Below are positions 180-63,461 of a stretch of DNA of 64,000 nt, piece after piece. Location: NCBI GenBank assembly GCA_045863235.1, contig BTUM01000012.1:1-64000 (forward strand). The letters run 5' to 3'. Numbering within the stretch: the stretch's first letter is position 1; every line of letters starts with the position of its first letter. The stretch comes from Candidatus Xenobia bacterium (lineage in GTDB: Bacteria > Vulcanimicrobiota > Xenobia > Xenobiales > QWHO01). The notes beneath the pieces were generated by a model, which was not told where the DNA came from, searched no databases, and saw only the letters and a program-made list of their open reading frames with translations. Made by a program: the position numbers and the translations under genes.

Positions 180-1799
180 CTACCGACTGGGCGGCGCAGA
201 CGCGCAGGCCCGCAGCACGACGGCCTGGCGGGCCGGGATCTCCACCGTCACCTGGCCGTCCTTCACCGTGACCACCTGCCCGCTGAGCGCGTCCTCAAAC
301 CGGGTGCCTTCCTTGACCTCGGAAGGCATCCTCAGCTCGCGCCTGCTGACCTCGGTCGCGTTGTTCAAAGCCACCACCACCGAGTCTTTGGGGTGCAACC
401 GGGCGTAGGCGTAGACGTCGTGGTCGGCCAGCACTTCCTTCTGGTAACCGCGCCGCAGGGCCAGGGAATCGTGGCGCAGGTGGGCCAGGGTGCGGAAGTG
501 ATCGGTCACGTCCTTTTTGCCGGCAAACTCCATGTCCTTGCGGTTGCTGTCAAAGCCGCCATCCATCCCGGTCTCGGTCCCATAGTAGAAGGAGGGGATG
601 CCACGCATGGTCATCAAAGCCGTGATCCCGAGCTTCAAGCGCTCCTGACCGTGCGAGCCGGCGGCCGTCGCAAAGCGGGTCATGTCGTGGTTATCCAGCA
701 TGGTGACCAGCAGATCGGGGCGGCGGTAGACGCCATCTTGCGCGAAGATGTCCGACAACCTGCGCATATCCCCGTCGTCCTTGCCCCGGACCATGCGGAA
801 GCTCTCGCCCGGGTGGGTCAGGATGTTGCTCATGAAGAAGCTGAGGTTGTCGAGGTAGGTCGTATCCTCGTTGTAGCCGATGGTATCGCGCAGCGCGAAG
901 TTGAGGGGGAAGTCGAAGACCGTGTCGAGGGCGGCCTCGTTCTGGTAAACCTGGGTGGCCTTCGGCTTGGGATGGTAGATCTCGCCGAGCAGGAGGAAAT
1001 CGTTGCCGGCGTGGGCGTGAATCTCGCTCGAGAGCTGCTTCCAGAAATCCTTCGGCACGTGCTTGACGGCATCGAGCCGCATGCCGTCGATTCCGGTTTC
1101 GTCGATGAGCCACTTGGCCATGTCGATGAGGTAGCGGCTCACCTCGGGGTTCTCCTGAGCAAAGTCGGGCAGCCCGCAGAACTCGCCCTGCTCGAAGCCC
1201 TTCTGGGTGGGGATCTTGGTGTTGCCTCCGTGGTGGAACCACTCGTGCTTATCGGGGTCCTTGGCCATGGGAGCGTCGTAGCCGAGGTGGTTGAAGACCA
1301 TGTCGACGACCACTTTGAGCCCCTTGTCGTGGGCTCTGGCCACCAGCTCCTTCAATTTGGCCATGTCCCCGAAGCTCTGCTCGATCTGGAAGAAGTCAGT
1401 GGGCCAGTAGCCGTGATAGCCATCCATCCCGAAGAAATCCCGCTTCTGCTGGTGCACGGGGCTGATCCAGAGGGTCGTGACGCCCACGTCCTGGAGATAG
1501 TCGAGCTTGTCGATGATGCCCTGAAAGTCGCCGCCGTGGAAACGGTGCTGGTCCTGAGGCTGAGAGCCCTGATCGTTGGTCTTGTCGCCGTTATGGAAGC
1601 GATCGGTCATCACCATGTAGAAAATTTCGTCCTGCCAGGTGCGGGCGGCGGGCTGCGGAGACAGCGCCGGCATCCCCACCTTCGCCACCGGGCCAGTCCC
1701 CAACGCGACGCGCTCGAGTGGCTCCTCCGGCCTGGCCGGCGTGGGAGTCGGGGTCGTGGCCCGGAGAGGGGCAGTCAGGGGCAGACTGGTGACCAACAT
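180..1799 (-). CDS. GH13 alpha-amylase / neopullulanase-like glycoside hydrolase with Pro/Thr-rich N-terminal extension
   Basis: GH13 conserved regions: TDRFHNGD, HGGDFQGIIDKLDYL, GYHGYW, DMVFNH, GMRLDAVKH (nucleophile), GEI (acid/base), LDNHD; no hydrophobic Sec signal. Confidence 0.93.
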   Translation of the reverse strand: MLVTSLPLTAPLRATTPTPTPARPEEPLERVALGTGPVAKVGMPALSPQPAARTWQDEIFYMVMTDRFHNGDKTNDQGSQPQDQHRFHGGDFQGIIDKLDYLQDVGVTTLWISPVHQQKRDFFGMDGYHGYWPTDFFQIEQSFGDMAKLKELVARAHDKGLKVVVDMVFNHLGYDAPMAKDPDKHEWFHHGGNTKIPTQKGFEQGEFCGLPDFAQENPEVSRYLIDMAKWLIDETGIDGMRLDAVKHVPKDFWKQLSSEIHAHAGNDFLLLGEIYHPKPKATQVYQNEAALDTVFDFPLNFALRDTIGYNEDTTYLDNLSFFMSNILTHPGESFRMVRGKDDGDMRRLSDIFAQDGVYRRPDLLVTMLDNHDMTRFATAAGSHGQERLKLGITALMTMRGIPSFYYGTETGMDGGFDSNRKDMEFAGKKDVTDHFRTLAHLRHDSLALRRGYQKEVLADHDVYAYARLHPKDSVVVALNNATEVSRRELRMPSEVKEGTRFEDALSGQVVTVKDGQVTVEIPARQAVVLRACASAPPSR

Positions 1800-1806
1800 C
1801 GTCGGG

Positions 1807-1840
1807 AATCTAACCCGACACCCTTAAAAGATCCGGAAAG
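1807..1840 (-). promoter_or_regulatory. Heptamer direct-repeat promoter CTTTCCG-N4-TTTTAAG-N10-TAGATT, 7 nt before ATG
   Basis: Read directly; same geometry at 12445, 22726, 35175 and 63470. Confidence 0.7.
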
Positions 1841-1954
1841 CGCCGTGAGCACCCGCAAGAGGGGCGGCCGCCGGAAAGCGCGCTTGAGCTTGACCGCGAG
1901 TGGAATTACGAAGAGTACTGCCAGCTGCCCGGGCACGGTCAATGCGACGAAGTT

Positions 1955-8730: not shown

Positions 8731-8735
8731 GTCAG

Positions 8736-10953: not shown

Positions 10954-12438
10954 TCAGGAGCCCAGGTCACGCTCCACCGCGTAGGTGCTGCAGCGAATGG
11001 CCCCTTCGAGCTTGGAGATGGCGGCCATCTCCAGGGGCACGACCTCGAAACCGTTGTTGCGATAAATCTCGATGGCGATCTTGTCGAGCGGCTCGCAGCC
11101 ATAGGTGGGCAGGTAGACCTTGCGGACCGTCTCGCCGTCCTCTCCCGGGTAGACTTCCATCATGCAGTTGTTGTAGGTCAGGTAGGGCAGCTTCCAGGTC
11201 GTGCGCAGGCCGACCATGCTGGGCATGCGCTCCACCTCATAGCCCTCGGCTGCCAGTTGACGGGCCACATGGTCGTAGTTGGCCTGGCACTGGGGGCTGT
11301 TGTTAGCGGCGATGAGCTCGCCGATCACGTCCGAATCAGGGTCTAACCCGGCCTGACGAGCCATGGCCTGGTTCACGCTGGCCCGTTCCTCGGCTGAGAG
11401 CTTGGAGAACGCCTCGATGGCCAGGGCCGGGCTGCCCACCAGCATCTTGTTCTCGCCGATCGGCGTCACGCACATGTCGATATGGAAGGCGGGCTGCTCC
11501 TCCTTGATGGGAGTTGTCGGGTCATCCGCCCCGACGACCAGGACGTCTTTCTGGAAAGCCTTCTCGAAAACCAGCACCGGGACATCGCGCCACATCCGGG
11601 CCAGGCTGGACTCATCGGCCAGGTTGACCTCCTGCCCGGTCCAGGCCTCGTAGAACTTGCGAATGTCCTGCAGCCGCTCGGGGTCCTGGGCCAGCTCCTG
11701 CAAACGGGCCCGCGTGTGCTCGACCGAATCGCTCCCCACCAGCACCTGGTGGCGGTTGGAAACCAGGTTGCCGCCATCGATGCGCAGGGCCGGATGCGGA
11801 GACGAATCCAGATTGGCGTGAGCCCCATCGATCAGGGCAGGCACCCGGGCATCCTCGGGGCCCGGCCAGTAGGTGCGGTCCTGGATCATCAGCAGGGTGC
11901 GCCCGTCCGGCATGCGCACCGGCAGCATCGAATCGCGAATCCAGATCGAGAAGCCCTTCACCGTCTCAGCGGCCACCACGGTCACCCGGGCCGGGTCGGT
12001 GCCGGTCTCCTCCACCAGCCGGTGGATCGAGTCCACCCCGCGCTGATCGGCGCAGACGATGGTGAAGCGGCTGTCGGGAGCCATATTGCGCATCAGCTGG
12101 CCGTACATCCCCAGCACCGCGCTGCGGGTCTCCTCGGGCAGGGGGCGGTCGAACTCCACGTTGCCGAACTGGAAGGCCATGTGCTTGATCTTGCCGTGCG
12201 AGTCCGGAAAGAGCAGTCCCGCGCTGGCGAAAAGGGGCGGCAGGCCGGCGCAGGTGACCTGACCGGCCAGCTTGCACTGCTCCTGGGCCGCCTGCTCGGG
12301 GTCGAGTCGACACATGGGATGGTCGGCGTTGCTGCGCGAAACATGATCGAGGGGGTCAGGCGGGCTTTCCTCGGCACTGGCAGCGCTGGCCTGGGGCCGC
12401 GCGATGATCGGCATGGAGAGCGTGACGGGCTGCAGCAT
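10954..12438 (-). CDS. Pentein-fold (agmatine/peptidyl-arginine deiminase-like) enzyme with N-terminal extension
   Basis: SIWIRD, DGGN, FHIDM and C-terminal GAIRCST are the catalytic motifs of the amidinotransferase/deiminase superfamily. Confidence 0.75.
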   Translation of the reverse strand: MLQPVTLSMPIIARPQASAASAEESPPDPLDHVSRSNADHPMCRLDPEQAAQEQCKLAGQVTCAGLPPLFASAGLLFPDSHGKIKHMAFQFGNVEFDRPLPEETRSAVLGMYGQLMRNMAPDSRFTIVCADQRGVDSIHRLVEETGTDPARVTVVAAETVKGFSIWIRDSMLPVRMPDGRTLLMIQDRTYWPGPEDARVPALIDGAHANLDSSPHPALRIDGGNLVSNRHQVLVGSDSVEHTRARLQELAQDPERLQDIRKFYEAWTGQEVNLADESSLARMWRDVPVLVFEKAFQKDVLVVGADDPTTPIKEEQPAFHIDMCVTPIGENKMLVGSPALAIEAFSKLSAEERASVNQAMARQAGLDPDSDVIGELIAANNSPQCQANYDHVARQLAAEGYEVERMPSMVGLRTTWKLPYLTYNNCMMEVYPGEDGETVRKVYLPTYGCEPLDKIAIEIYRNNGFEVVPLEMAAISKLEGAIRCSTYAVERDLGS

Positions 12439-12444: not shown

Positions 12445-12478
12445 AGATTAACCCGCCCGACTGAAAAAACGCCAAAAG
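12445..12478 (-). promoter_or_regulatory. Heptamer direct-repeat promoter CTTTTGG-N4-TTTTCAG-N10-TAATCT, 6 nt before ATG
   Basis: Read directly; shared geometry with four other genes. Confidence 0.7.
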
Positions 12479-12500
12479 GCCCGCCGGAGCGGGCCTTTTG
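12473..12500. terminator. Intrinsic terminator (bidirectional shape) after the subtilase gene
   Basis: CAAAAGGCCCGC-CGGA-GCGGGCCTTTTG perfect hairpin. Confidence 0.8.
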
Positions 12501-12549
12501 AAGTGGGGCACTGAAGGCGGACTGCCAAACCTTCAGCTGGGTTTTCCGA

Positions 12550-13983
12550 TCAGGCCCGGCGCACTTCCTCGAGCGCCTTCTCGGCGTTGACGAAGCCAGT
12601 GCCCTGCTCGTTGCCGGACAGGTTGCCCATCGAGTCGGCCGTGCGACGCAGGATGTCCTTGGTCTCGGCCGGGTTGATGTCGCGCACCTGCTCGAGCTGA
12701 GCGGCCACGCCCGCCACCAGCGGGGCGGCGAACGAGGTGCCGGGGGCGGCGATCAGGCCCGGGGCCGGGATGGCCACGGCCGGCAGGTTGGGCTTCACCA
12801 GCTCCTCGACCTCTTCGCTTGAACGGTTCTGGATGTCGGCCGGCAGACCCAGCGCGTCGACCAGCTCAGGGCGCTGCTTGAGCAACTTCTTGAGGTCGTC
12901 GCCGCTCATGTCGCGCAGGCGCTGCACGACTTCGCCCGTCTGCTGCATCTCCGAGCCCTCGACGCTCCAGCTCGAGATCCACTCGCCCGGGGCGATGACG
13001 TCCGGCTTGATCAGCCCGTCGTCGGTGGGTCCGCGGGAGGAGAACTCGCTCAGGGTGCGGGGATTGAGGGCCGCGCCCACGGCGATGGCGGCGTCGGAAT
13101 CGGCCGGCGAGCCCAGCGTGCGCCCATCCGGACCCGAGTTGCCGGCCGCGGCAATGACCGTGATGCCCGAGCGGGCGGCCAGTTGCACGGCCCGGTTGAC
13201 CGGGTCCTGCGTGTCAGGGAAGCCGTCCGGGGCGCCGCCGAGGGACATGTTGATTACGTCCACGTCCAGGCGTCCGGCCTTCTTCTCGTTGACGACCCAC
13301 TGCAGGCCGCGAATGATGTCGGAGGGACGGCCCGTGCCGTTGTCGCCCATCACCTTGACGGCCACGATCTCGGCCTCAGGCGCGGTCTGCAGCACGTCGC
13401 CGGCCACGTGGGTGCCGTGACCCACCGGGTCGACGGGGGTGGTGTTGCCCGGGTTGGTGATGTCTTTCCAGGCCTTCAGCTCGAACTGGGGATGGTCAAA
13501 GCCCGAATCGAGCACGGCCACGATCTGGCCCTTGCCGGTGATGCCCTGCTGCTGCAGGCTGTCGGACTTGAGCCAGGGGACGGGGGTTACCTCGGGCATC
13601 TTCCAGTCGAAGCCGAAGCCGGCGAACTCCCAACCATCGGAGTTGGAGCCGCTGCGCGGGATGCTGGGCATCAGCTGGCGCGGGCTGTTGTCATAGACGG
13701 TGTAGCCCTGCTCTTTGAGCTCGGCCAGCTTCTTGTCGTCCACCCGGGCGGTGACGCCGAAGTTGTCGAGCGACTCGCTGACCTGCACGCCCTTCTTGGC
13801 CAGGTCACTGCTGAGGTCGACCGGGTCGGCTCCCATCATCAGGTCGCCCTCGCCACCCACGATGATGACATCCTTCAGGCCGTCCGAAACCGGCTCGGTG
13901 GACTTGAAGGGCGACTCGCCGTTGACGAGCTCGCGAATGCGGGTCAGCTGCTGGGGGCTGTAGCTCTGGATGGGGGTGTTCAT
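12550..13983 (-). CDS. S8 subtilisin-like serine protease, no Sec signal
   Basis: Triad motifs VLDSG, HGTHVAG, GTSFAAP; oxyanion AAGNSG; SD GGAGG. Confidence 0.93.
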   Translation of the reverse strand: MNTPIQSYSPQQLTRIRELVNGESPFKSTEPVSDGLKDVIIVGGEGDLMMGADPVDLSSDLAKKGVQVSESLDNFGVTARVDDKKLAELKEQGYTVYDNSPRQLMPSIPRSGSNSDGWEFAGFGFDWKMPEVTPVPWLKSDSLQQQGITGKGQIVAVLDSGFDHPQFELKAWKDITNPGNTTPVDPVGHGTHVAGDVLQTAPEAEIVAVKVMGDNGTGRPSDIIRGLQWVVNEKKAGRLDVDVINMSLGGAPDGFPDTQDPVNRAVQLAARSGITVIAAAGNSGPDGRTLGSPADSDAAIAVGAALNPRTLSEFSSRGPTDDGLIKPDVIAPGEWISSWSVEGSEMQQTGEVVQRLRDMSGDDLKKLLKQRPELVDALGLPADIQNRSSEEVEELVKPNLPAVAIPAPGLIAAPGTSFAAPLVAGVAAQLEQVRDINPAETKDILRRTADSMGNLSGNEQGTGFVNAEKALEEVRRA

Positions 13984-14148
13984 CTGGTGGACCTCCGTCT
14001 GTGTTCGTTCTGGCTCCGCGTTGCATTATGCCAAAGGGGGCTTTCAGGGTTTGTTAAGAGCAAATGAACAGATCCCCGGACTTCCGGGAGCCCTTCCGTT
14101 TACAATTTGGCAAAGATTCACAGAGCCTGGGAACGCTATCCTGTCAGC

Positions 14149-15177
14149 ATGCACATCCAGCCGCGCTTCACCGCTCCAGTCTCCTCGAGCTCCGCTCCCC
14201 GCCGCGACGCCCAGACTCCCGTCAACGAGCAACGCCTGGTGGATACCTTCCTGCGCCTGGTGCAGGTGCCCGGCCCGTCGCTGCGCGAGCGCCCCATCGC
14301 CGACCAGCTCAAGAAGGAGCTGGGCGAGCTGGGCCTGACGGCTCGCGAGGATGATGCCGGCAAGGTGCTGGGCGGCAACGCCGGCAACCTGATCGTGAGC
14401 ATCCCGGGCAACGTGGCCGAGGCTCCCTCGCTGCTGTTTGCCTGCCACATGGACACGGTGCCGCTGGCCGTGGGCGTGAAGCCTCAGATCGAGAACGGCA
14501 TCATCAAGTCGGACGGGACAACCGCCCTGGGCGGCGACAACCGGGCCGGCTGCGCCGAGGTGCTGGAGGCCATCCGCGAGATCAAGGAGCAGAACCTGCC
14601 CCACGGACCCATCCAGCTGGTTTTTACGGTGGCCGAGGAGCGCGGGCTCTTAGGCGCCCAGGAGCTCGATCCGACCCAGTTGCAGGCCGACTTCGCTTAC
14701 GCCGTGGACGTGTTCAAGCCTCACCAGATCTTCACCCAGGGCCGCCATCTCCTCAACCAGCCGATCGTGCTCGACGAGCACACCATGGACAGGCTGCACA
14801 CCGAGCGCCAGAACGCGCCCATCCAGCCTCCCGACTGGTTGCGCCTGACTTTTGAAGAGCGCGAGATCCTCAACTTCACAGCCGGGGCGATGCAAGACAT
14901 CGGCTTCACGCCCGAGTTCCGCAAGCTCGAATGGGGCGGCACCGACGCCATCGCCCTGCGCCAGCACGGGTTCAACGCCATCAGCCTGGGGGCGGGCGAG
15001 AACAACCCCCACACCCGGCGCGAGACCGTCGAGATCAAGGACCTGGTGGATGCCACCCGGCTGATCAAGGGCCTGGTGGCCCGGGCGGCGGCGGTGGGCC
15101 AGGAGCGCCAGGCTGCCCGCCAGGCGGCCGCGGCGGTGGGCGGACCGGTGGGAGCAGCGCTGGCTCAGGCCGCCTGA
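14149..15177 (+). CDS. M20/M25/M40 family metallopeptidase with Ser/Pro-rich N-terminal extension
   Basis: CHMDTV, LGGDNRAG, AEERGLLGA, GGTD, NPHTRRE; start set at ATG 14149, 6 nt after TATCCT. Confidence 0.85.
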   Translation: MHIQPRFTAPVSSSSAPRRDAQTPVNEQRLVDTFLRLVQVPGPSLRERPIADQLKKELGELGLTAREDDAGKVLGGNAGNLIVSIPGNVAEAPSLLFACHMDTVPLAVGVKPQIENGIIKSDGTTALGGDNRAGCAEVLEAIREIKEQNLPHGPIQLVFTVAEERGLLGAQELDPTQLQADFAYAVDVFKPHQIFTQGRHLLNQPIVLDEHTMDRLHTERQNAPIQPPDWLRLTFEEREILNFTAGAMQDIGFTPEFRKLEWGGTDAIALRQHGFNAISLGAGENNPHTRRETVEIKDLVDATRLIKGLVARAAAVGQERQAARQAAAAVGGPVGAALAQAA

Positions 15178-15654: not shown

Positions 15655-16404
15655 TTAAGCAGGTCGATCGCGCAGAGCCAGGATGCGGCCTGGATAGTGG
15701 GCCATCTCGCGGTATTTGCGCAGGGCCCGCGCTTCGCCGAAAATCTCCTTGACCGCGTGGTAGAGCGGGGACTGACGCGGATTGTCCACCGGAGCGATCA
15801 GGTTGCTCCACTTGCGCGGGTCGACCCCGTCGTCGCACGCTCTGGCCATGGCGCGCAGCACGGTGCCGCCGCCCCCGTTGTAGGCGGCCAGATCCAGATG
15901 CCACAGGTCGTCCCCGGTGGGCAGGCCCAGCCGCTGGTAGGCGTCGGCCACTTTGGCGCCGTACGGGGTGTTGGGGTTCGGGTTGGTGATCACGCGGTGC
16001 TTCTCGTGCAGCACCGCCACCCCCACCGGCAGGGCTCTGGCCGGAATCTTGCGCTCGTCCACCGGACGCAGCTTGAGCCCGTGGGCGGTGGCCGTGGCGG
16101 GCGTCAACTGCACCAGTCCGGCCGCCCCGGTGGGGCTGACCGCAGTGGGGTCGAAGGCGCTCTCGACGGCCACCAGGGCTTTGAAAAGGCGCGGGTCGAG
16201 CACGGGCTCGCCCGCGGGCCAGCCGGTCACGGCCTGAGCGATCTGATTGTTGAAGAGGTTCTCGCGGGCTCCATAGCCCCAGTTGGTGCGCAGGGGGTCG
16301 GTGGGCTGGTCGCGGCGGCATGCTGGCTCCGGCGTTTCGGGAGCGCAAGCGGGCCGGGCCAGCCAGGCCCTCGGGGACAGCCCGGGGGTCAGCAGCACGT
16401 TCAT
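15655..16404 (-). CDS. Lytic transglycosylase (SLT domain), no Sec signal
   Basis: AVESAF, GAAGLVQL and AAYNGG motifs; paralog of 49601..50500. Confidence 0.88.
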   Translation of the reverse strand: MNVLLTPGLSPRAWLARPACAPETPEPACRRDQPTDPLRTNWGYGARENLFNNQIAQAVTGWPAGEPVLDPRLFKALVAVESAFDPTAVSPTGAAGLVQLTPATATAHGLKLRPVDERKIPARALPVGVAVLHEKHRVITNPNPNTPYGAKVADAYQRLGLPTGDDLWHLDLAAYNGGGGTVLRAMARACDDGVDPRKWSNLIAPVDNPRQSPLYHAVKEIFGEARALRKYREMAHYPGRILALRDRPA

Positions 16405-16405: not shown

Positions 16406-17101
16406 TCAACGCACCGCCATCAGGTATTCGAGCGGGTCGCCCGGGGCCAGCAGGTACTCCTCGGGCGGCGGCTCGGGGTCTTGCTGCTCGGCGGGTGGAT
16501 CGGGGCGGATCTCGCCCTCCACCGCGAAATAGTCGCGCACTCCCCGGGCGATGGCGCCAGCGGTGTTCTCGCGAAACTGCGGGTCGGCCAGCAGGGCCTC
16601 GTTGCCCGAGTGCGAGAGGTAGGCGGTCTCCACCAGCACGGCTGGCATGTGGGTGTTGCGCACCACGTAGAAGTCCGACTTGCGAACCCCGTTGGATTTG
16701 AGCGGCAGCTCGTCCACCATGTGCTGGTGGATCAAGCGCCCCAGCACCTTGGATCGACTGGAGGCGTTGCGGGCGTGGTAGACCTCGGTTCCGTGCACTT
16801 CAGGATTGGTGTTGGAGTTAGAGTGCACGCTGACGAAGATGTCGGCCGGCCACTGGTTGGCCAGGTCACAACGGGCCTGCAGGTCGTCGCGCAGACTGCC
16901 GCCAGGCAAAACTTCGGTGTCGCTGGTGCGGGTCATGCGCACCTCGGCGCCCATCTCCTCGAGGTCCTCCTGCAACTCCTGGGAAACGTGCAGGTTGACG
17001 TCCTTTTCTCTCAGCCCGGTGCGTCCGATGGCGCCGGCAAAGCGCCCGCCGTGACCCGGGTCGATCATGACCTTCTTGCCCGCCAGTGGCAGCGCGTTCA
17101 T
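16406..17101 (-). CDS. N-acetylmuramoyl-L-alanine amidase (Amidase_3), no signal peptide
   Basis: IDPGHGG, EKDVNL, FVSVHSNS, PAVLVETAYLS; start set at ATG 17101 behind GGAGG. Confidence 0.92.
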   Translation of the reverse strand: MNALPLAGKKVMIDPGHGGRFAGAIGRTGLREKDVNLHVSQELQEDLEEMGAEVRMTRTSDTEVLPGGSLRDDLQARCDLANQWPADIFVSVHSNSNTNPEVHGTEVYHARNASSRSKVLGRLIHQHMVDELPLKSNGVRKSDFYVVRNTHMPAVLVETAYLSHSGNEALLADPQFRENTAGAIARGVRDYFAVEGEIRPDPPAEQQDPEPPPEEYLLAPGDPLEYLMAVR

Positions 17102-17235
17102 GGGTTGGCCTCCGCCCGATATCATTATCGACCGCTCCTGTCGTCGCTGAAATATCGCACCCATCATAGGCAGTTCTCCCCGGTGAGTTGTTACGGCGAG
17201 GTAAACCCCCCAGAGGGCCGAAGCTCATACCAGGC

Positions 17236-21785: not shown

Positions 21786-22715
21786 TCAGGAGGATGGCTT
21801 TTCCTCGTTCGGGCCGGGAACTTCTTTCTCTTCGCGAGCGTGGAACATGATGTTCCCCTGCTGCACCGCATCCACTGCCCCGCCCAGCAGTCCTTTGAGG
21901 AAGGCCCCGTCACCGTAGACCCCGGCCAGCACCATCTCCTTGCCAAACGACAGGGGGATCACCCCCAGCGTGCGCGCCCAGCGGCGGGCGGTGGAGGGCG
22001 GCGTGTCCGGCGTCTCTCCGCGCAGGGCGCGACCGCGCTCGCCGATGTCCTCGGCCAGGTTGCGGAAGAACTGGCTGGTGCGCGGACCCACCACCGCTCC
22101 CAGGCCCGAGGCGGCCGTGCAGGCCAGGCCGGCCATCAGGGGGTCCATCGGGATGACACCGGCCGCCGCCAGCGAGGTGCCCACCGCGCAGCCGGCCAGG
22201 GCCCCCACCAGCAGACGCTTCTTCTCGCTGGGGAACTGGGCTCCCAGCAGGGCGCCCAGTCCACCCACCACCTTGGCCGGTCCCTCGAAGAAGGGCGAGG
22301 CCAGGATCAGCCCGTTCACCCCGCCGTCACGCACCACCGCGCGCGAGTCGGCCCGCAGGCCGGTGTAGGTGCCCAGCATGGCGCCACAGGTGGCCATGGC
22401 AACCGGCGAACCGCCCGTAATGAGGGTGGTGGCGGCTCCCACCGCGGCACCCGTGGCCGTCCCGGCCAGGGCTCCCACCCAGGGATTGTCGCCCAGGCGC
22501 CGGGCCAGCACCGCGGCCACGCCGGCGCTGCCCTGAATGGCCAGACCGGGCAGGTCCATCAGGTAGAACCCTTCGGTAGCCCCCTCGCAGGCCGACTGGA
22601 ACAGGTTGGGACGCTCGAAGTTCCCCGCCGTGGTGGATCGCGGCGAGGTATAGCGGTCGGCCGCCTGCAGGGCCTGACGAGCCTGACGAAAGACAGGGAG
22701 GCTGGAGAGCTCCAT
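21786..22715 (-). CDS. Hypothetical Gly/Ala-rich membrane-associated protein (glycine-zipper-like)
   Basis: 309-aa ORF with repeated GxxxG hydrophobic segments; preceded by the shared heptamer promoter. Confidence 0.75.
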   Translation of the reverse strand: MELSSLPVFRQARQALQAADRYTSPRSTTAGNFERPNLFQSACEGATEGFYLMDLPGLAIQGSAGVAAVLARRLGDNPWVGALAGTATGAAVGAATTLITGGSPVAMATCGAMLGTYTGLRADSRAVVRDGGVNGLILASPFFEGPAKVVGGLGALLGAQFPSEKKRLLVGALAGCAVGTSLAAAGVIPMDPLMAGLACTAASGLGAVVGPRTSQFFRNLAEDIGERGRALRGETPDTPPSTARRWARTLGVIPLSFGKEMVLAGVYGDGAFLKGLLGGAVDAVQQGNIMFHAREEKEVPGPNEEKPSS

Positions 22716-22725: not shown

Positions 22726-22759
22726 AGCGTAGCCCCGGGCTCGGAAAACTTCCTGAAAG
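22726..22759 (-). promoter_or_regulatory. Heptamer direct-repeat promoter CTTTCAG-N4-TTTTCCG-N10-TACGCT, 10 nt before ATG
   Basis: Read directly. Confidence 0.7.
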
Positions 22760-22792
22760 GGGATTTGGGGGCCGGCTGTCCAAAACCTGACG

Positions 22793-23317
22793 GTGAACAT
22801 CATCGCGCTCACCGTCGAGCAGCAGAAGTGGCTCAAGGCCCTGGCCGAGGAATGCCGGACGGTTCGAGGCCAGGCGACCGCCCTGTGCGATGGCTCGCGT
22901 CCCCCCACCGAGGCCGAGCTGGCCGCCCTGCGACAGCTCTACCAGAGTCACTCCGAAGGGCTGCTCTTTCGCTACGGCCAGACCGCCAGCTACCTCGAGC
23001 GCTCGGGGTTGAGCGGGCTACGCCAGGCACTGGAGGCCGAGCTCCAGGACGTGGCAGCGGCCCTGGCCATCTTCCAGCAGATCGAGGCCGACCGGCGTCG
23101 CCACCAGGCCGAGCGCTGGGCCGTGCAGCAACAGACCGAGCAGTACGTGGGCCGGATTTATCAGGAGGCCTCCCTGCGCCAGCAGCAGGCCTTCGATGAG
23201 CACAACCGGCGCTGGTCGGCGGTCTTCAATCAGCGCTGGGCCCATCCCGGCCTGTGCGCGTTTTGCCGTTCTCCCCTCAACCTCTGGGGAAGTTGCAGCT
23301 GGTGCTCATGGCGCTAG
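22793..23317 (+). CDS. Hypothetical coiled-coil protein with C-terminal zinc ribbon
   Basis: Q/E/R-rich helices; C-terminal CAFC...CSWC. Confidence 0.7.
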   Translation: MNIIALTVEQQKWLKALAEECRTVRGQATALCDGSRPPTEAELAALRQLYQSHSEGLLFRYGQTASYLERSGLSGLRQALEAELQDVAAALAIFQQIEADRRRHQAERWAVQQQTEQYVGRIYQEASLRQQQAFDEHNRRWSAVFNQRWAHPGLCAFCRSPLNLWGSCSWCSWR

Positions 23318-29890: not shown

Positions 29891-29897
29891 GCCGACA

Positions 29898-29935: not shown

Positions 29936-29945
29936 AGCAGCTCAG

Positions 29946-32913: not shown

Positions 32914-32914
32914 G

Positions 32915-34708: not shown

Positions 34709-34715
34709 TGCTGAA

Positions 34716-35165
34716 TCAGCGGAGAATGATCCACTGCTCGCCGGGCTGGCCGGGAGTGGTGTCGATGAAGACCTGGCAGCGCTCGGCGCCCTTCACGTAA
34801 TCGAGCTCGATCAGGCCGTTCTCGGCCGGGGCGTGCAAGACTTCGTGGGTGGTCTGGCCGCAGTTGGTCTGACCCTCGATGTGGTGGATGAGCTGGTTGC
34901 CTTCGGCGCGCACCTGATCGGGATGGTTGCGGTAAAACCGCTGCAGCGCTTCCTCGCGACGAGGGTTGCGGCCGAGCAGGCAGCCGACCGGGTCGGCAGC
35001 TTCCAGGCGGCACAGCTCGCTGCGGTCGACCATCAGCCCGCTGAAGCTCGACTCGCTGACCCCCTGGCTCAAGAAGTCGGTCTCGTTCACCAGTGCCTTC
35101 AACTGCTCGGGCGGGCGGTTGGTGCGGCTGGCGGCAAACTCAATCAGGCGCGTGCTCACGTTCAT
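34716..35165 (-). CDS. Hypothetical protein inserted antisense between herA and sbcD
   Basis: 149-aa ORF filling the gap, with its own heptamer promoter. Confidence 0.7.
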   Translation of the reverse strand: MNVSTRLIEFAASRTNRPPEQLKALVNETDFLSQGVSESSFSGLMVDRSELCRLEAADPVGCLLGRNPRREEALQRFYRNHPDQVRAEGNQLIHHIEGQTNCGQTTHEVLHAPAENGLIELDYVKGAERCQVFIDTTPGQPGEQWIILR

Positions 35166-35174
35166 CTTGAGGTG

Positions 35175-35197
35175 ACTATAGAACCCCTGCCTGAAAA
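35175..35197 (-). promoter_or_regulatory. Heptamer promoter TTTTCAG-N10-TATAGT, 9 nt before ATG (upstream repeat absent)
   Basis: Read directly. Confidence 0.65.
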
Positions 35198-35222
35198 AAA
35201 ACTACTCGAAAGGCTCCAACCC

Positions 35223-42876: not shown

Positions 42877-43503
42877 TCAGTAACTCTGCTGTCGCTGCCA
42901 CCAGGGAGTGCAGTTGGGGGTGTCGGCCTCGACCGGCGCTTGAGCGTGAGCGGCCAGGTCCACTCGATTCTGCAGCTCGTTGCCAGGATGGAAGACCAGC
43001 TGGCCATTGTTGCTCATCACCGTGCCATAGACGCTGTGGCCGTTGGCCTGAAAGTCATTGAAGCTCTCTTTGGCTGTCAGGGCGCCGAGCAGGGCGCCGC
43101 CGGCGGCGCAGACGGCCACCGGGGCGGCCAGGGCCACACCCTCGAACATGCCGTAGAAGCCAGCCGTCAGAATCGAGGCGACCGTGCCCAGCACGTTGAT
43201 CCCGACCACGCCCACGACCCCCAGAATGGCGCCCCCGATGGCTCCCGAGATGGCCTGCTCCCGGACGAAGTCCTTGAGCGTGCGCTGGGAATCGGCGGTT
43301 GTCTTGTAGTGATAGACTGCCTCGGCACCCTGATCGCCCACTTGAAGCTGGCTGAGCATGGATGAGGTGGAATCAAACTTTTGCTCGCCCACCTGCCACC
43401 ATTCGGTGGCCGGACGGGTCGGGGAGCAGGGCTGCTCGGCACTGGCCCGAGCCGGCCGGGAATAGACCTGAGGCAAAGCGGTAGCGGTGGTGGTGACGTT
43501 CAC
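42877..43503 (-). CDS. Hypothetical protein with Thr/Pro-rich N-terminus and central glycine-zipper hydrophobic hairpin
   Basis: SD AGGAGG, GTG start, GAIGGAILG...AGGALLG. Confidence 0.75.
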   Translation of the reverse strand: MNVTTTATALPQVYSRPARASAEQPCSPTRPATEWWQVGEQKFDSTSSMLSQLQVGDQGAEAVYHYKTTADSQRTLKDFVREQAISGAIGGAILGVVGVVGINVLGTVASILTAGFYGMFEGVALAAPVAVCAAGGALLGALTAKESFNDFQANGHSVYGTVMSNNGQLVFHPGNELQNRVDLAAHAQAPVEADTPNCTPWWQRQQSY

Positions 43504-45019: not shown

Positions 45020-47074
<2,055 letters not shown>

Positions 47075-48286: not shown

Positions 48287-48372
48287 TCTCCGTCCTCTTT
48301 GCAGTCCTTCGACGTCCCGCGAGGTTGAGCTTTTGAGGCAGGAGTTCCCCCTCCCTCCTCGCAGGTGGGGCC

Positions 48373-52391: not shown

Positions 52392-53123
52392 TCACACCGG
52401 GGCCGGCTCACGCCCCTTCTTGATGTCGTCTTGCTGCATCTGGGCCCGAGCGGCCGACTCCTTGCCGGCCGCCTCCGCCTCCACGGCCCGGTCCTGCTGG
52501 GAGGGCGTGGCCGGAGCCAGGGCTGCCTTGCGAATCTTGGCCATCTTGTCGGCCGTCTTCTTGGGATCGCCCGCCTCTCCCATGTCCACCTCGACCTTGC
52601 CGCCGGTCACAAAAGTCTTGCCGTTCGAGGCGGTGTAAGTCTCGAAGACCGGACCACCCCGGGCATGCTCGCCCGCCTCGTTGAGGTGCTCCTGCTCGTG
52701 GGCGCGCACTTCCTGGTCGCGCTCCTCGAGCACTTTGAGGGGATTGGTGCCGGAGCCGCCATTGGTGGAGATGCACCCGCAACCCTTGGCGCAGACGTGC
52801 CGGGCCATCTCCTCGTCCTGGGCGCTGGCTTTGGGCATTCCGCTGGGATCCAGACCATTGGCATTGCCGTTGGCCTCATTCGGGTTGGCGGGGTTGCCGG
52901 TCTTGTCATTGGCACCGTTCGCGTTGCCGTTCTTGTCGGCCGGGGCGCCAAAGTTGGGAATGCTGCCGGTCGGCTTCTCGGTCTCGGCCTGACTCACCGT
53001 GACCCGATCTTCGATGGGCGAGGGCGGCCGGGGGGCCGGGCCATCGTCGACCTCGACGCCCGCTTGACGCCTGAGACCGAGGGGCGCTCCAGGATTGAAG
53101 CCGATAGGGTCCATGCCAGCCAT
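52392..53123 (-). CDS. SprA-related putative metalloprotease
   Basis: RDQEVRAHEQEH, GGKVEVD, AALAPATPSQQDRAV; low-complexity N-terminal half with NGNANG repeats. Confidence 0.8.
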   Translation of the reverse strand: MAGMDPIGFNPGAPLGLRRQAGVEVDDGPAPRPPSPIEDRVTVSQAETEKPTGSIPNFGAPADKNGNANGANDKTGNPANPNEANGNANGLDPSGMPKASAQDEEMARHVCAKGCGCISTNGGSGTNPLKVLEERDQEVRAHEQEHLNEAGEHARGGPVFETYTASNGKTFVTGGKVEVDMGEAGDPKKTADKMAKIRKAALAPATPSQQDRAVEAEAAGKESAARAQMQQDDIKKGREPAPV

Positions 53124-59271: not shown

Positions 59272-59694
59272 TTAGCTCGCGTTCGACACCAGTCGCAGAG
59301 AGTCGTTGTGCGACTCGGCCACGACGTGGTTGAAGGAACCGAAGGGCGTTGGCACGCCCCGCTCCACCACCGTGGTGCTCATCGTTTTCGAGCCGAAGGC
59401 TTCGGCCAGATACTGACATGCGCGCCGCGGATCGGTGTGGTCTCCACAAGTGTACACATCGATCGCCGCGTAGCCATGTTCAGGCCACGTGTGAATCGCG
59501 ATGTGCGACTCGGAGAGCACCACAACCCCACTTACCCCGTGGGGGTAGAACTTGTGGAAGGCCACCTCGCGCACCGTTGCGCGGGCCTCCTTGGCTGCCC
59601 GGATCATGGCTTCCTGGACTTTTTCAAGGTCCGAGAGCACGCCCGGGTGGCAATGGGAGAGCTCTGCAATAACGTGATTACCGAGAGCTTTCAC
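59272..59694 (-). CDS. speD: S-adenosylmethionine decarboxylase proenzyme
   Basis: LGNHVIAEL, FHKFYPHGVSG, LSESHIAIHTWPE, DVYTCG; an in-frame upstream ATG exists at 59955. Confidence 0.92.
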   Translation of the reverse strand: MKALGNHVIAELSHCHPGVLSDLEKVQEAMIRAAKEARATVREVAFHKFYPHGVSGVVVLSESHIAIHTWPEHGYAAIDVYTCGDHTDPRRACQYLAEAFGSKTMSTTVVERGVPTPFGSFNHVVAESHNDSLRLVSNAS

Positions 59695-60124
59695 TCCTAC
59701 CACCTCACTTTTCTGCTCGGGAGATCCCACCTCCAAGATGTCTCGATTTGAGAATCGGCCGGGAGCCGATAGCGCTATATTAGGGCTTGGGACCCCAAAT
59801 GTAAAGAGGGGCACAAAGCTACCAACAAGCGTTTCGACGAGAATCCATGCGGGTTTGAGCAAAGGGGGGCATAACGGTCCGAACAGGGGTTCCATGGGGG
59901 GGCCAATGGGGCTTCTCAAGCCCCATGCGGGTTCCATCGTTGAACTTAATTCCATACCGCTGCGCCTCCTGTTGCCAGGCCGCATGCTCGCAGATCCTCC
60001 TGAAATTTCTCTGACAGAATTGGAGGCCAAAGTGAAGACGAGTCTGCCAGCCTGCACTGGCGCAACAGAGTGTGGGCTCGTCGCCAGGAACCTGGCCCGT
60101 CCGATGCGAAAGCGCCTCCACGCC

Positions 60125-61117
60125 ATGGAACGATTCGGGTCATATCGTCCGAGCCAGCTTCGCATCGGAGTGATCTCCGGCAAAGAGGCCTTCTCTCGGA
60201 CCCTCATCGCCGAGATCAATCGGCGCGGTCCCGAGGTCCACGCCGAGTACTGCCGCCTGTTCGAGACCCGCCTGGGTCAACCCAGCGGCTACCACGTCAT
60301 CATCGATCGACTCTCGCACGTGCTCGAGTACTACCGCCCCTACCTCAAGCACGCGGCCGTGACCGGAAGCTACATCATGAACAACCCGTTCCGGTTCCTG
60401 TCGGATGACAAGTTCTTCAACTACGCCGTGGCCACCTCACTGGGCGTGGCCATCCCCCGCACGGTGGTCTTGCCCAGCAAGGAGTATGACGAGCGGGTGC
60501 TCGAAACCGATGACCTGCACAACCTGGGCTTCCCCCTCGACTGGAAGGCCATCACCGGCTACATCGGGTTCCCGGCCGTGCTCAAACCTTACGACGGCTA
60601 CGGCTGGCGCGAGGTCTACACGGTCGAGACCCTGGAAGAGCTGATGAAGATCTATGACGACTCCATGCAAGACGTCATGATGCTCCAGGAGTTCATCGAC
60701 TGGGACCACTACGTGCGTGCCTTCGTGGTGGGCAAGCGGCACGTGATGCCCAGTCGCTACGATCCCCACGAGCGGCGCTACATCGTCGACCACGCCCACC
60801 TGAGCCCCGAGTTGGGCAGGCGCATCATCGACGACTGCATCAAGCTCAACGAGGCCCTCGGCTACGACATCAACACGGTCGAGTTCGCCATCAAGGACGG
60901 CGTGCCGTATGCCATCGACTTCATGAACCCGGTGCCCGACGCCAAGCCCGAGACGGTCACCCCGCTCTACTTCACCTGGCTGGTCAAGACGGTGGCCGAC
61001 GTGGCCATCGAGTATGCCCGTCAGGGAGCTCGCACCCCCTACCAGTTCCAGAGTGGGCCAGTCGCTCCCACCTTCATGCCGCCCCGGCTGCGTCTGCCTT
61101 CTTACCTGCCGGAGTAG
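60125..61117 (+). CDS. ATP-grasp (RimK-like) ligase
   Basis: DDKFFNY, IPRTVVLP, FPAVLKPYDG, MLQEFI, NTVEFA, AIDFMNP. Confidence 0.82.
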   Translation: MERFGSYRPSQLRIGVISGKEAFSRTLIAEINRRGPEVHAEYCRLFETRLGQPSGYHVIIDRLSHVLEYYRPYLKHAAVTGSYIMNNPFRFLSDDKFFNYAVATSLGVAIPRTVVLPSKEYDERVLETDDLHNLGFPLDWKAITGYIGFPAVLKPYDGYGWREVYTVETLEELMKIYDDSMQDVMMLQEFIDWDHYVRAFVVGKRHVMPSRYDPHERRYIVDHAHLSPELGRRIIDDCIKLNEALGYDINTVEFAIKDGVPYAIDFMNPVPDAKPETVTPLYFTWLVKTVADVAIEYARQGARTPYQFQSGPVAPTFMPPRLRLPSYLPE

Positions 61118-63461
61118 GGCTGGGCTTTTTCCAGCGCAAGAAGGCGTAACTGCGGGGCGGAAGGGTCAGCTCGATGCGGCCCTCCTGTATGGTGGCTTTC
61201 TGGTCGCCCACCATGTCCTGCAGCTGCGTGCCCTCGGGAATCTGGCTCTGATCGTGCAGCTTGAAGCTCAGCTCGCGCGACTCGCTCTGGTGGTTGTTGA
61301 AGACGCACACCACCTCTTCGTCGGCACGCATCCGGCTCAGAGCATAGGTGTGCCGGCTGGCCAGAAGCTCGACCTGGTGTCCGAATTGGAGCGCCTCCGA
61401 GGAGCGCCGAGCCCCGGTCAACTCGGCAAAGCGCTTGGTCCACTGCGGGTTCTGGCCCCAGGCCATGTCGTTGCGATTCTCCGGCCCTACCCCGGTCATG
61501 CCGACCTCGGTGCCATAGTACACGTGGGGCGTGCCTCGAGCGGCCATCAGGAAGGCGGTGGCCATCTCGAGCTTGCCCAGATCGCCCTGGCAGTCGGACA
61601 TGAAGCGGATCATGTCGTGGTTGTCGAGCATGGTGCCAAGCTTGTTGGGATTGTCGTAATAAAGGTCGGCGTCGAAGGCCTTGGAGAGGTGCTCCATACT
61701 CTCCAAGCCCGGGTGGGTCAACAGCCGCAGAGCTTCCTGATTGGCGTGGCTCTTGACTGTCTTGAAGTCCTCCAGGCGCTCCTTGAGAGTGCGCTCCTCG
61801 TCCCCCGAGAAAACGTAGCGGATGCGATAGGCCAGCGGGAAGTCGAACATCGAGTCCATGGTTCGGTTCTGGTAGCCGGCCACGAAGTTGGGGTCTTGCC
61901 AGTAGGCCTCCCCGACCGCGAAGAAATCGGGATTGACGGAACGCATCTCCTGGTCGAAGCGGCGCAGGTACTCCTCGGGAACGTGGCGTACGGCGTCCAT
62001 GCGGAAGGCGGAAAGACCCGTCTCCTGGAGCCATTCCTTGTGAGCGGACAAAAGCTCTTCGGCCACTTCGGGATGAGCCTGGTGCAGGTCAGGCAGCCCG
62101 GCCAGCGACCCGTTCTCGGCCTTCCATTGCCCGGGGCCGCCAATCTTGCCGTTTTGATGGAACCAGTCGCGCTTGGAGGGGTCGTTGACCCACTCGTGGT
62201 CGTAGGCGGTGTGGTTGACCACCACGTCCAGCATCACCTTGATGTTCTTCTCGCGAGCTTTGTCGCACAGCTCCTTGAGCTTGGCCTTGTCTCCGAAGTT
62301 GGGCTCGGCCGCGCGAAAGTCGCGGGGCCAGTAGCCGTGGAAGCCATCCTTGCCGAAGAAGTCTCGCTGGTTCTCATACGGACATGAAACCCAGAGGCAG
62401 TCCACGTTGAGGCTCTGCAGATAGTCGAGCTTGTCGATCAGCCCCTGCCAGTCGCCCCCGTGAAAGCGCTCCGGGTCGCCCGCAACCACGCCCTGGTCGT
62501 TCGTCTTGTCGCCGTTCTGAAAGCGATCGGTGACGGCGTAGTAGACCAGCTTGCCCTCCCAGCGAAAGACCTGGTCGCGCCCTCCCTCCGAGGAAAGACG
62601 GCTGTGGACGCGCGTCTCGCCATCCCTGGCGGTGAGCGCCTCCAGGCGCAGCGGCTGGCCGTCCTGCCAGCCCAGCTCGCGCAGCACCTTCTTGTCCAGG
62701 TCCAGGTTGACGCGGCTGAACACGCTGGAGTGCTCGGCCTTGCCGGCGGTTGGGAGCGCGCCCTCTTGTCCATCGCAAAAGTGGAGGGTGCGATTGGTGT
62801 CAATCTTGACGGCCAGCTTGTAGCTGCCTTCCCCCTGCCAGCCGAAGGGCAGGGCGCGCTGCCCGGCCGGGGCGCCCCAATCCACCAGCACGGTGGTGTC
62901 CAGGTTGCCGTGCTCGGCTCCGGCCCGCAGGTAGGCCACCTCGGCCTGCACCTGGTAGGGCTGGTCGGCGGCTCCCTCGCGGGCATACAGCCCGGCCAGC
63001 GAGCGGGAGCTGTCGTAGCCGTCGTAAAGGCGTTCCTGCCGACCGGGGCTGCGGGCCGCCAGCAGGTGCTCGCCGCCCAGCGGGGTGGGGCGCTCCTCGA
63101 GCACGGCCTGATCGATCTTGTGCAGCATGGAGTTCCAGCGGCTGGTGAACCTGTTGCTGGCCTCGCGAGAGAGGGCCTTCAGATCGTGGATGGGCCCGGG
63201 CCAGTTGTAGCCGCCATAGCCCCCCACCAGGGCGCCCAGGGCCGCCCCGGCCGTTCCCCCGATGGCGGGGGGAATTCCCAGCGCGGCGGTGGACAGCCCC
63301 AACGCCGCCCCCACCCCGGCGCCCAGGGCCACTCCGACAGCGCCGCGAGTCCGACGCAGGCTCACCTGATCGGGGCTGGGCTCGGTGTTGGGGATCGGGG
63401 CTCGAGGCGGGCTCGAGCTCGCCGCCAGAGGCCGGAACGCCATGGTGCTCTGAACCTGCAT
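61074..63461 (-). CDS. GH13 alpha-amylase-like hydrolase with N-terminal extension, glycine zipper and accessory domain
   Basis: TDRFQNGD, HGGDWQG, GFHGYW, DVVVNH, AFRMDAVRH, GEAY, LDNHD; GAVGVALGAGVGAALG segment near the N-terminus. Confidence 0.92.
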   Translation of the reverse strand: MQVQSTMAFRPLAASSSPPRAPIPNTEPSPDQVSLRRTRGAVGVALGAGVGAALGLSTAALGIPPAIGGTAGAALGALVGGYGGYNWPGPIHDLKALSREASNRFTSRWNSMLHKIDQAVLEERPTPLGGEHLLAARSPGRQERLYDGYDSSRSLAGLYAREGAADQPYQVQAEVAYLRAGAEHGNLDTTVLVDWGAPAGQRALPFGWQGEGSYKLAVKIDTNRTLHFCDGQEGALPTAGKAEHSSVFSRVNLDLDKKVLRELGWQDGQPLRLEALTARDGETRVHSRLSSEGGRDQVFRWEGKLVYYAVTDRFQNGDKTNDQGVVAGDPERFHGGDWQGLIDKLDYLQSLNVDCLWVSCPYENQRDFFGKDGFHGYWPRDFRAAEPNFGDKAKLKELCDKAREKNIKVMLDVVVNHTAYDHEWVNDPSKRDWFHQNGKIGGPGQWKAENGSLAGLPDLHQAHPEVAEELLSAHKEWLQETGLSAFRMDAVRHVPEEYLRRFDQEMRSVNPDFFAVGEAYWQDPNFVAGYQNRTMDSMFDFPLAYRIRYVFSGDEERTLKERLEDFKTVKSHANQEALRLLTHPGLESMEHLSKAFDADLYYDNPNKLGTMLDNHDMIRFMSDCQGDLGKLEMATAFLMAARGTPHVYYGTEVGMTGVGPENRNDMAWGQNPQWTKRFAELTGARRSSEALQFGHQVELLASRHTYALSRMRADEEVVCVFNNHQSESRELSFKLHDQSQIPEGTQLQDMVGDQKATIQEGRIELTLPPRSYAFLRWKKPSPTPAGKKADAAGAA

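Follow-up and report, generated by a model that had tools for sequence, protein, structure and literature searches.

A promoter-defined set of tagged proteins in a Candidatus Xenobia bacterium and the flagellar-type gate through which they may be exported

The stretch of DNA analyzed here, positions 1-64000 of contig C12 (BTUM01000012.1) in the genome of a Candidatus Xenobia bacterium (G000; assembly GCA_045863235.1; 8.36 Mb, 65.8% GC, 97.6% complete) and hereafter called the window, raises the question of why ten of its proteins, several of them hydrolases of glucans, proteins or peptidoglycan, begin with segments that lack the hydrophobic core of a Sec signal, and of what could export them. 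An earlier note, made from the sequence alone, had taken these proteins for substrates of a dedicated secretion system. Our analysis leads to a related answer, to which we assign a probability of about 0.7: a set of approximately 400 tagged proteins would be exported through a duplicated flagellar-type gate turned protein-delivery machine. The basis of this reading is a shared N-terminal tag, a promoter motif, the gene inventory of the apparatus, its conserved gene order and a separate FlhA clade. The open reading frames (ORFs) concerned and their promoter boxes are listed below in window positions; boxes were scored with a position weight matrix (PWM), N-terminal tags with a classifier on residues 2-50, and all genome-wide counts rest on gene calls from our own simple hexamer model (6862 genes).

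180..1799, minus strand: GH13 alpha-amylase family enzyme (GH13a), 539 residues; tag MLVTSL...ERVALG (residue 29); domain from residue 63; tag score 1.1; homologs keep the tag.
1807..1842, minus strand: promoter box of GH13a; 11-bp repeat, 10-bp spacer, -10 element TAGATT; 7 nt before the ATG; PWM score 26.0; predicted leaderless.
10954..12438, minus strand: pentein (deiminase-fold) enzyme, 494 residues; tag with DHVSR (residue 31); weak PAD_porph match; tag score 3.1; homologs keep the tag.
12445..12480, minus strand: promoter box of the pentein gene; 6 nt before the ATG; PWM score 27.3; predicted leaderless.
12550..13983, minus strand: S8 protease, 477 residues; no Sec signal, no box; tag score 0.4, the weakest member.
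14039..14074, plus strand: weak box 74 nt 5' of the M20 ATG; PWM score 12.9; assignment uncertain.
14149..15177, plus strand: M20/PepT-like peptidase, 342 residues; 24-residue lineage-specific extension; no M20 dimerisation domain; tag score 3.4.
15655..16404, minus strand: lytic transglycosylase (SLT), 249 residues; tagged N-terminus; second gene behind an amidase; tag score 2.1.
16406..17167, minus strand: Amidase_3 protein without Sec signal; operon partner of SLT; start uncertain.
21786..22715, minus strand: glycine-zipper protein (ORF 22715), 309 residues; no family; tag score 1.1.
22726..22761, minus strand: promoter box of ORF 22715; 10 nt before the ATG; PWM score 27.4.
34716..35165, minus strand: orphan protein (ORF 35165), 149 residues; 2 close homologs only; boxed, leaderless; tag score 2.1.
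35175..35210, minus strand: promoter box of ORF 35165; 9 nt before the ATG; PWM score 16.0.
42877..43503, minus strand: 208-residue protein (ORF 43503) with a hydrophobic glycine-zipper hairpin; GTG start with Shine-Dalgarno sequence; no box; tag score 3.9.
52392..53114, minus strand: SprA-related protein; DRVTVS at residue 36 (numbered from the 53114 ATG); no box; start uncertain; tag score 1.5.
61074..63461, minus strand: GH13 enzyme (GH13b), 795 residues; tag with DQVSL (residue 31); glycine zipper at about residues 43-80; catalytic domain from residue 311; tag score 4.6.
63470..63505, minus strand: promoter box of GH13b; 8 nt before the ATG; PWM score 26.7; predicted leaderless.

The promoter box that precedes GH13a, the pentein gene, ORFs 22715 and 35165 and GH13b, more weakly the M20 gene, and not the S8, SLT, 43503 or SprA-related genes, consists of two TTCAG copies at an 11-bp period, a 10-bp spacer and TANNNT, with the ATG following after 6-10 nt. 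Its core, TTTCAG-N10-TANNNT, occurs at 138 sites genome-wide as against 3-12 at each of 15 other spacers, with the second TTCAG lying 11 bp upstream of the first; 425 of the 458 PWM sites are intergenic, and 389 site-gene links could be made. At a score of at least 16 there are 352 boxed genes (247 leaderless, 249 families), spread over 107 of the 165 gene-bearing contigs. Because the box is defined at the level of DNA, this gene set is chosen independently of protein sequence. Within the genus the pattern outnumbers its reversed control by 138 to 7, 128 to 4 and 158 to 17 in the respective genomes, and it exceeds that control also in the groups g5, g6 and f4 and in some other classes, while standing at background level in f14. 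The earlier note had staked its reading in part on the extensions being real, and the sequence supports their starts: the boxed -10 element lies 6-10 nt before the extension's ATG in five genes, and the public gene calls of homologs agree.

The box shares with OmpR/PhoB or SARP boxes the geometry of an 11-bp direct repeat ending 10 bp before the -10 element, and with Hrp systems, which have the PIP/hrp box, a promoter box made of direct repeats; among the 26 Trans_reg_C and 25 BTAD matches in the genome, none is boxed, none lies in the export cluster and none is singled out as the regulator. A sigma-28 promoter was considered and rejected: a FliA-like gene is present, but the motif is a direct repeat with a sigma-70-type -10 element. 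Leaderless genes are common in this genome: across 1709 starts that are unambiguous, TANNNT peaks at -12. A second motif, found post hoc, occurs 5' of tagged genes that have no box (GTTCAC in 18/84 vs 35/1087, GTAACA in 13/84 vs 29/1087). By eye, TTAACA is also seen 5' of flgB on contig C27, the first gene for an 81-residue protein, a 473-residue paralog and the flgE-like gene, all introduced below, and members of the TTAACA/GTTCAC/GTAACA family stand at window positions 14052 and 14117.

The tag itself emerges when 224 boxed leaderless genes, those of the window excluded, are compared with a background of 2772 unboxed genes that have a single possible start. Ile or Val occupies residue 3 in 124/224 boxed genes vs 382/2772, and D-x-[VFY]-x-[LIP] occurs within residues 20-45, with a peak at 24-34, in 51/224 vs 107/2772; glycine zippers are enriched (22/224 vs 50/2772), and a Sec-like core is rare (9/224 vs 799/2772), a Tat signal rarer (1/224). 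When the rule for choosing starts is matched (122 boxed vs 333 unboxed leaderless genes), the differences persist for the Sec-like core (4/122 vs 99/333) and for richness in serine, threonine, proline and glutamine (68/122 vs 89/333). Cross-validated by family, the classifier reaches an area under the curve of 0.90, against 0.62 on residues 100-142. A score above 2 is attained by 47% of the positives and by 81/2772 background genes, and since many of these 81 look tagged, the tagged set must be larger than the boxed set; among boxed genes with a leader, which lay outside training, 52/100 score above 1, as against 161/2772 in the background, and for two FlgM proteins from relatives, both confirmed by Pfam, the scores are 1.9 and 2.5. 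As in type III substrates, the tag is by sequence an uncleaved N-terminal signal without a Sec or Tat core, and its two-part spacing resembles that of the Salmonella rod/hook subunit signal, for which the available text of PMC8983047 gives 19-30 residues between the hydrophobic signal at the N terminus and the gate motif of early subunits.

Measured against this background, the description of the window proteins in the earlier note holds, with a few corrections. The coordinates of the ten flagged ORFs and all six quoted N-termini are exact, and Pfam backs the proposed identities of both GH13s, S8, M20/M28/M42, SLT and the SprA-related protein, as well as, through its weak match, that of the pentein; catalytic motifs were found on inspection in both GH13s, S8, M20, SLT and the pentein. 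ORFs 22715, 35165 and 43503 gave no Pfam or NCBIfam match, and for ORF 43503 the Atlas gave just sub-threshold Gly-zipper rows, all under 0.9. None of the ten has a hydrophobic Sec-like core, their best 11-residue hydropathy in residues 2-40 ranging from -0.05 to 1.44 (the 799 background genes counted above reach at least 2.0). Richness in serine, threonine, proline and glutamine, ascribed to all ten, is borne out for seven (share 0.41-0.55 in residues 2-30) and not for SLT (0.31), ORF 35165 (0.28) or the SprA-related protein (0.24), given a background median of 0.21 and a 90th percentile of 0.34. Likewise, the D/E-x-V motif is present in the four proteins named, at residues 29-36 rather than 30-45 (ERVAL 29, DHVSR 31, DQVSL 31, and DRVTV 36 as counted from the third ATG, 53114); in that loose form it is by itself only twofold over background (40/224 vs 241/2772), tighter forms being 6- to 14-fold enriched. 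Tag scores hinge on the choice of start: high values are also given by upstream starts in the window that were called in error (4.7 at 45020, 2.6 at 20168). Of the three candidate ATGs of the SprA-related gene, the sole one scoring as tagged yields MDPIG. The SLT gene has no promoter of its own and starts across a 1-nt gap from the amidase gene.

Homologs allow the extensions to be followed beyond this genome. Among the best matches of the M20 peptidase, 73/82 start 18-63 residues (an alignment offset) before the domain and in the same style, the other nine being fragments or short starts, whereas 34/37 distant matches with a dimerisation domain, those named belonging to Bacillota, Fusobacterium and KSB1, start within 7 residues of the domain; the proposed lineage specificity of the extensions is thus supported by the single family that has an outgroup. 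Cytoplasmic PepT-like homologs have an M20 dimerisation domain; the tagged M20 clade does not. By eye, the tag pattern is kept in GH13 homologs throughout the class, with a box (score above 10) at 12/16 non-self loci outside family f2 and at 0/13 within it; for the pentein the box is found at 7/29 non-self loci, two rows being one gene and three having no start. S8 homologs (60 of 120 viewed) share a conserved start without Sec signal, many of the form M-S/T-x-P-I/V-G and some with D-x-V-x-L, and their search reached no outgroup. Elsewhere in the tagged set the extensions precede enzyme domains that are normally cytoplasmic, such as a thioredoxin reductase-like domain from residue 55, a His phosphatase from 70 and an aldolase from 80.

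The earlier note saw no secretion apparatus in the window, and this is right; the candidate exporter lies on contigs C27 and C74/C13. The genome encodes one full FlhA and one FliP, and the C27 cluster runs flgB flgC fliE fliF fliG-like fliG fliH fliI fliJ SLT fliK flgE/G-like fliM fliN fliN fliO fliP fliQ fliQ fliR flhB flhA; with flgF, flgG, a gene for a rod-binding protein and fliA on C74/C13, the rod proteins FlgB, FlgC, FliE, FlgF and FlgG are all present. All parts score as flagellar types: FlhB, FliP, FliQ, FliR, FliI and FliF pass flagellar cut-offs, the FlhA profile gives 814.6 bits vs 616.5 for SctV, and the TIGR equivalogs for injectisomes score below those for flagella and remain under their own cut-offs. 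At the same time, Flagellin_N (controls detected) and MotA_N have no match in the genome, and FliC, FliD, FlgK, FlgL, FlgM, FlgD, FlgH, FlgI and MotA of relatives no tblastn match in an assembly 97.6% complete, one or two representatives of each query label having been confirmed. Of 28 flagellar proteins of relatives used as queries, those with matches were confined to rod/hook proteins, FlhA (at 41%) and, in part, a MotB: one of two MotB queries matched one protein over 126/314 residues, and three MotA queries matched nothing. The genome thus holds one flagellar-type type III gate, with no flagellin or stator found. The CesT chaperone profile had no match anywhere, controls included, and of three secretin-family genes none lies on C27 or C74 and two lie inside type II secretion system (T2SS) or pilus operons. 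Outside the pilus operons, a short secretin-like protein of 295 residues (L011:1354-2238) is a candidate outer-membrane channel. Five further genes carry the C-terminal part of the FlhA/FHIPEP domain alone (G000 C80, C3, C1, C106 and C107; L002-L004), one of them with a FliG-like start, and possibly encode extra substrate docks.

Of 37 class genomes, 36 have FliP, and in G050 and G054 the contig that carries flagellin bears a second FliP; the gate is also kept by class genomes of 2-3 Mb without flagellin, and flagellated relatives encode their flagellum separately from this cluster. FlhA at 66-85% identity occurs in 16/23 genomes chosen across the phylum. In a tree of 29 final rows, from which G032_c (on a very long branch in the first tree) and 22 other rows had been left out and which included no Chlamydia, Myxococcota or Hrp1 SctV, it forms its own clade (100/100), to which neither the flagellar FlhA of the phylum (100/99) nor the five SctV sampled belong; a union of FlhA with SctV was not rejected (approximately unbiased test, p 0.173). 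Families f14, f18 and f19 have a reduced, fast-evolving flhA locus related to the clade (L214, L223, L224; flgE-like, fliN, fliP, fliQ and flhA in two of the three loci viewed), and stand-alone extra flhA copies without adjoining export genes occur at L229 (G046:C21) and L230 (G032:C44).

Taken together, genuine starts, lineage-specific extensions and a suitable exporter, the three points on which the earlier note had made its reading depend, all come out in its favor as far as sequence allows, and the view of these proteins as dedicated-export substrates is supported at that level; export itself and a predatory or host-associated lifestyle we infer.

What lies 3' of flhA bears on the form of the machine: a gene for a 104-residue protein, three identical tandem genes for an 81-residue protein, and a 473-residue paralog with D-E-V-T-L-S near its start. 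In many relatives flhA, the 104-residue gene and an 81-residue gene adjoin, and the 81-residue family follows flhA in most of the relatives' clusters seen. It is present in 47/151 phylum genomes sampled, among them 17/17 of f2, in which flagellin is found in 0/17, and it was found in 0/81 of f14, 0/10 of f18 and 0/6 of g5; the f18 tallies (FliP/flagellin, box and 81-residue counts) include genome G116, flagged as unpublished. In g5 the corresponding position is taken by two tag-like proteins of greater length whose C-termini are helical. We regard the 81-residue protein as a putative filament subunit, a lead that comes from an Atlas likeness to the HrpA pilin; it has no PDB sequence match and no Foldseek match, and 150 distant relatives contain no needle or pilin Pfam family. 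The model of the 104-residue neighbor (predicted local distance difference test score 86) gives generic helices, with a best Foldseek E of 0.78 and a best VIA-align Z of 7.6 (root-mean-square deviation 3.7 over 71 residues). The 81-residue domain also ends TIR (6/150), CHAT, VgrG/gp5 and Rhs proteins (P0140, P0156, P0171, P0181, P0200, P0217, P0229, P0235, P0256), and may be a reusable polymerising module. RNA-library contigs covering the S8 gene (window 12506-14007), the 81-residue genes and the 473-residue gene come from wastewater or sludge runs of at least two studies, which speaks to presence in RNA libraries only, as starts, strand and level are not readable and run X1, which covers all 30 bins, may hold DNA. 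One further ORF of the window belongs here:

22793..23317, plus strand: 174-residue ORF; C-terminus weakly like the 81-residue pilin-like family (tblastn E 0.001, 31% over 62 residues).

By this sequence likeness it is possibly a minor filament subunit or distant paralog of the family; it is divergently placed relative to the boxed ORF 22715.

As to what would pass through the gate, a Pfam scan at 1e-5 covered 141 of the 352 genes with a box, taken from regions dense in boxes; 48 have a family and 93 none. The families comprise nine PQQ-type propellers, five acyltransferases, eight peptidases (M48, C1, C11, C26, C92, S51), three InhA-MAM proteins, two monogalactosyldiacylglycerol (MGDG) synthases, two lipid desaturases, GDPD and endonuclease I, in addition to some unlikely cargo. 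Together with the glucanases and wall hydrolases of the window, this predicted cargo best fits the digestion of bacterial cells, and bacterial predation is the target lifestyle that fits best, eukaryotic targets being possible.

The export model that we favor would run as follows. Mostly leaderless single genes would be turned on by an activator that probably belongs to the OmpR/PhoB or SARP type, and the hydrophobic residue 3 together with a D-x-V/F-x-L/P strand about 25 residues further on would be read at the FlhB/FlhA gate or by a chaperone, with FliI, FliH and FliJ powering export. Cargo would cross the rod (FlgBC, FliE, FlgFG and the short FlgE-like protein) and then a thin filament of 81-residue subunits. 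Beyond it, cargo with glycine zippers would go into the membrane of the target, and glucan, protein, lipid and peptidoglycan would be attacked by the hydrolases. By its membership the machine is neither a flagellum nor a canonical injectisome, and most likely it works like an injectisome. That it delivers into target cells, as an independently evolved machine, we hold at somewhat less than even odds on the present sequence evidence; with similar reserve we entertain the possibility that an early duplicate of the flagellum became the Vulcanimicrobiota's own injectisome, in which motor and flagellin were lost, rod and C-ring were kept, the 81-residue protein serves as pilin and, in Xenobia, some 400 effectors go into bacterial prey or hosts.

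Several observations weigh against the favored model. With regard to the tag, the canonical gate motif F-x-x-x-hydrophobic is depleted in residues 20-45 (18/224 vs 533/2772), the D motif is present in those 51 of 224 genes only, and FlgB, FlgC, FlgF, FlgG, FliK, the 81-residue subunit and the 473-residue paralog score below 0 at their likely starts. In a cross-genome sample, scores above 2 were obtained by 17/339 genes of this genome, training genes included, 9/117 of G056 and 10/365 of three f14 genomes (p 0.12 and 0.026), several of the f14 high scorers looking like mis-called starts and the sample including neither the gut family nor g5. As for the regulon, most genomes of f2 and g4, which have the apparatus, show no clear enrichment of the box; in the present genome the box stands ahead of the third 81-residue copy only and not ahead of the gate operon, and it also precedes unlikely cargo (a major facilitator superfamily transporter, an HrpB helicase). 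As for the machine, no L/P rings or linked secretin for the crossing of the outer membrane were found. The likeness of the 81-residue family to Hrp pilins is at the level of a lead (Atlas 0.91/0.90, clusters 23-24% PF09589), with a Pfam pilin match in 3/43 members only (best E 0.49) and a predicted fold of one helix; the family was not found in the six g5 genomes, yet g5 has the FlhA clade, box and tags, and elsewhere the domain is fused to TIR, VgrG and Rhs.

The alternative that survives best, which we nevertheless consider rather unlikely, shares the export step with the model above and differs only in destination: the same gate would export merely to the periplasm, the surface or the medium, as a bulk digestive secretome without injection, the 81-residue protein being a short plug or rod extension. 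It draws on the fact that no translocon, tip, secretin link or CesT-type chaperone was identified and that many of the identified cargo proteins are nutrient-releasing hydrolases, and it has a parallel in Lysobacter's flagellin-less flagellar type III secretion system (T3SS), which according to the available text of PMC7688988 affects the secretion of a protease and a glucanase. It fits less well with acyltransferases, MGDG synthases, lipid desaturases, an acyl-CoA synthetase and beta-propellers, which need cytoplasmic substrates or partners, or with the enrichment of glycine zippers and the two thirds of the scanned cargo (93/141) that have no Pfam family.

More improbable is a reading in which the extensions serve as tags for degradation, or arose as a side effect when leaderless genes were born within a large regulon of cytoplasmic proteins, and the flagellar cluster does other work. 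Several relatives do have a Lon protease gene close to the cluster, the products of some boxed genes clearly belong in the cytoplasm or the membrane, and the low scores of known apparatus substrates and the cross-genome sample without clear excess would be in keeping with such an origin. The tag nevertheless persists in boxed genes with leaders (the 52/100 above) and in genes with no box, its pattern is fixed across families of diverged sequence with the peak at 24-34, it is not evident what peptidoglycan hydrolases and a subtilisin, all lacking a Sec signal, would do in the cytoplasm, and the gate is kept in 36/37 genomes, including those of 2-3 Mb without flagellin. Very unlikely, finally, is an address for another route (type IV pilus or T2SS-like machines, vesicles, contractile systems, microcompartments): the genome does have three secretin-family genes with T2SS and pilus operons, but T2SS cargo requires Sec or Tat signals, rare in the boxed set, and the phage-type contractile sheath (PF04984) was found in 0/5 genus genomes and VipB (PF05943) not in this one, controls being detected in both searches; among these other routes the searches covered secretin-family genes and contractile systems.

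With Salmonella flagellar export (PMC8983047, available text) the machine shares FlhA/B, FliP/Q/R/O, FliH/I/J, FliF/G/M/N, rod and FliK and a two-part signal of similar spacing, whereas here no flagellin, stator, FlgK/L/D, FliD, FlgM or L/P rings were found, D-x-V/F-x-L/P takes the place of F-x-x-x-hydrophobic, and the candidate substrates are hundreds of non-structural proteins. In the favored model the machine would resemble injectisomes and Hrp pili, as described in the part of PMC3459982 at hand, in having a motorless gate, a small filament subunit gene, a chaperone-like neighbor and a large co-regulated effector set; unlike them, the present system keeps FlgBC, FliE, FliG, FliM, FliO and FlgFG, and no SctC link, SctD or translocon was found. 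Myxococcus xanthus, a large-genome predator, has an atypical needleless T3SS* that is required there for prey lysis (PMC12075869 and PMC3459982, in the text available); going by the same excerpts, the myxobacterial systems are without FlgBC, FliE/G and needle, whereas here FlgBC and FliE/G are kept and there is a candidate filament, and our tree holds no myxobacterial SctV. Lysobacter enzymogenes OH11 has a flagellar T3SS without functional flagellin, linked to hydrolase secretion against microbes, which in the accessible portion of PMC7688988 appears as a strain-level remnant with three named proteins, in contrast to the present gate, a deep duplicate that in relatives occurs side by side with true flagella and that has a candidate filament family, a tag and a regulon to itself. 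Within the same phylum, the available text of PMC9259500 describes Ca. Eudoremicrobiaceae with large genomes, degradative enzymes, diverse secretion systems and predicted predation; in it flagellar genes are read as motility, one TXSScan T3SS row is marked 'no_decision', and no tag, regulon or motorless duplicate is described. The part of PMC11484240 available contains no mention of secretion or flagella, and in the open-access full-text literature, subscription papers not being covered, we found no description of this system, tag or regulon.

What is known of how flagella gave rise to injectisomes comes chiefly from intermediates of Myxococcales type, without rod and needle (PMC3459982, excerpt). 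A phylum-wide motorless duplicate with a rod and its own filament family would, if true, provide a second case for comparison, be it an independent second origin of an injectisome or an early stage of the known transition that survives today, and one that even small gut-associated members keep. Moreover, type III signals are usually hard to define, and the DNA motif described here gives hundreds of natural examples and thus renders signal rules testable. In the same event, Xenobia genes that are counted as motility would be a secretion machine, and some 5% of the genes, two thirds of which in the scanned sample have no Pfam family, would encode candidate effectors in a lineage of wastewater and gut.

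The remainder of the window is even in composition, and no tRNA was found in it. At 31975-39391 lies a DNA-repair cluster of NurA, a HerA-like gene (assigned by position, without Pfam match), SbcD and SbcC, broken by ORF 35165 on the opposite strand, and at 26242-30494 an ECF sigma factor with a zf-HC2 anti-sigma factor and a DUF2339 membrane protein. An S-adenosylmethionine (SAM) decarboxylase gene at 59272-60019 has an upstream box-like site (18.4) without a good -10 element; a SAM methyltransferase ORF at 46992-48374, missed by the gene caller, overlaps the end of a histidine kinase call (45020-47074) on the opposite strand; and a TPR-repeat protein of 1722 residues is encoded at 1955-7123.

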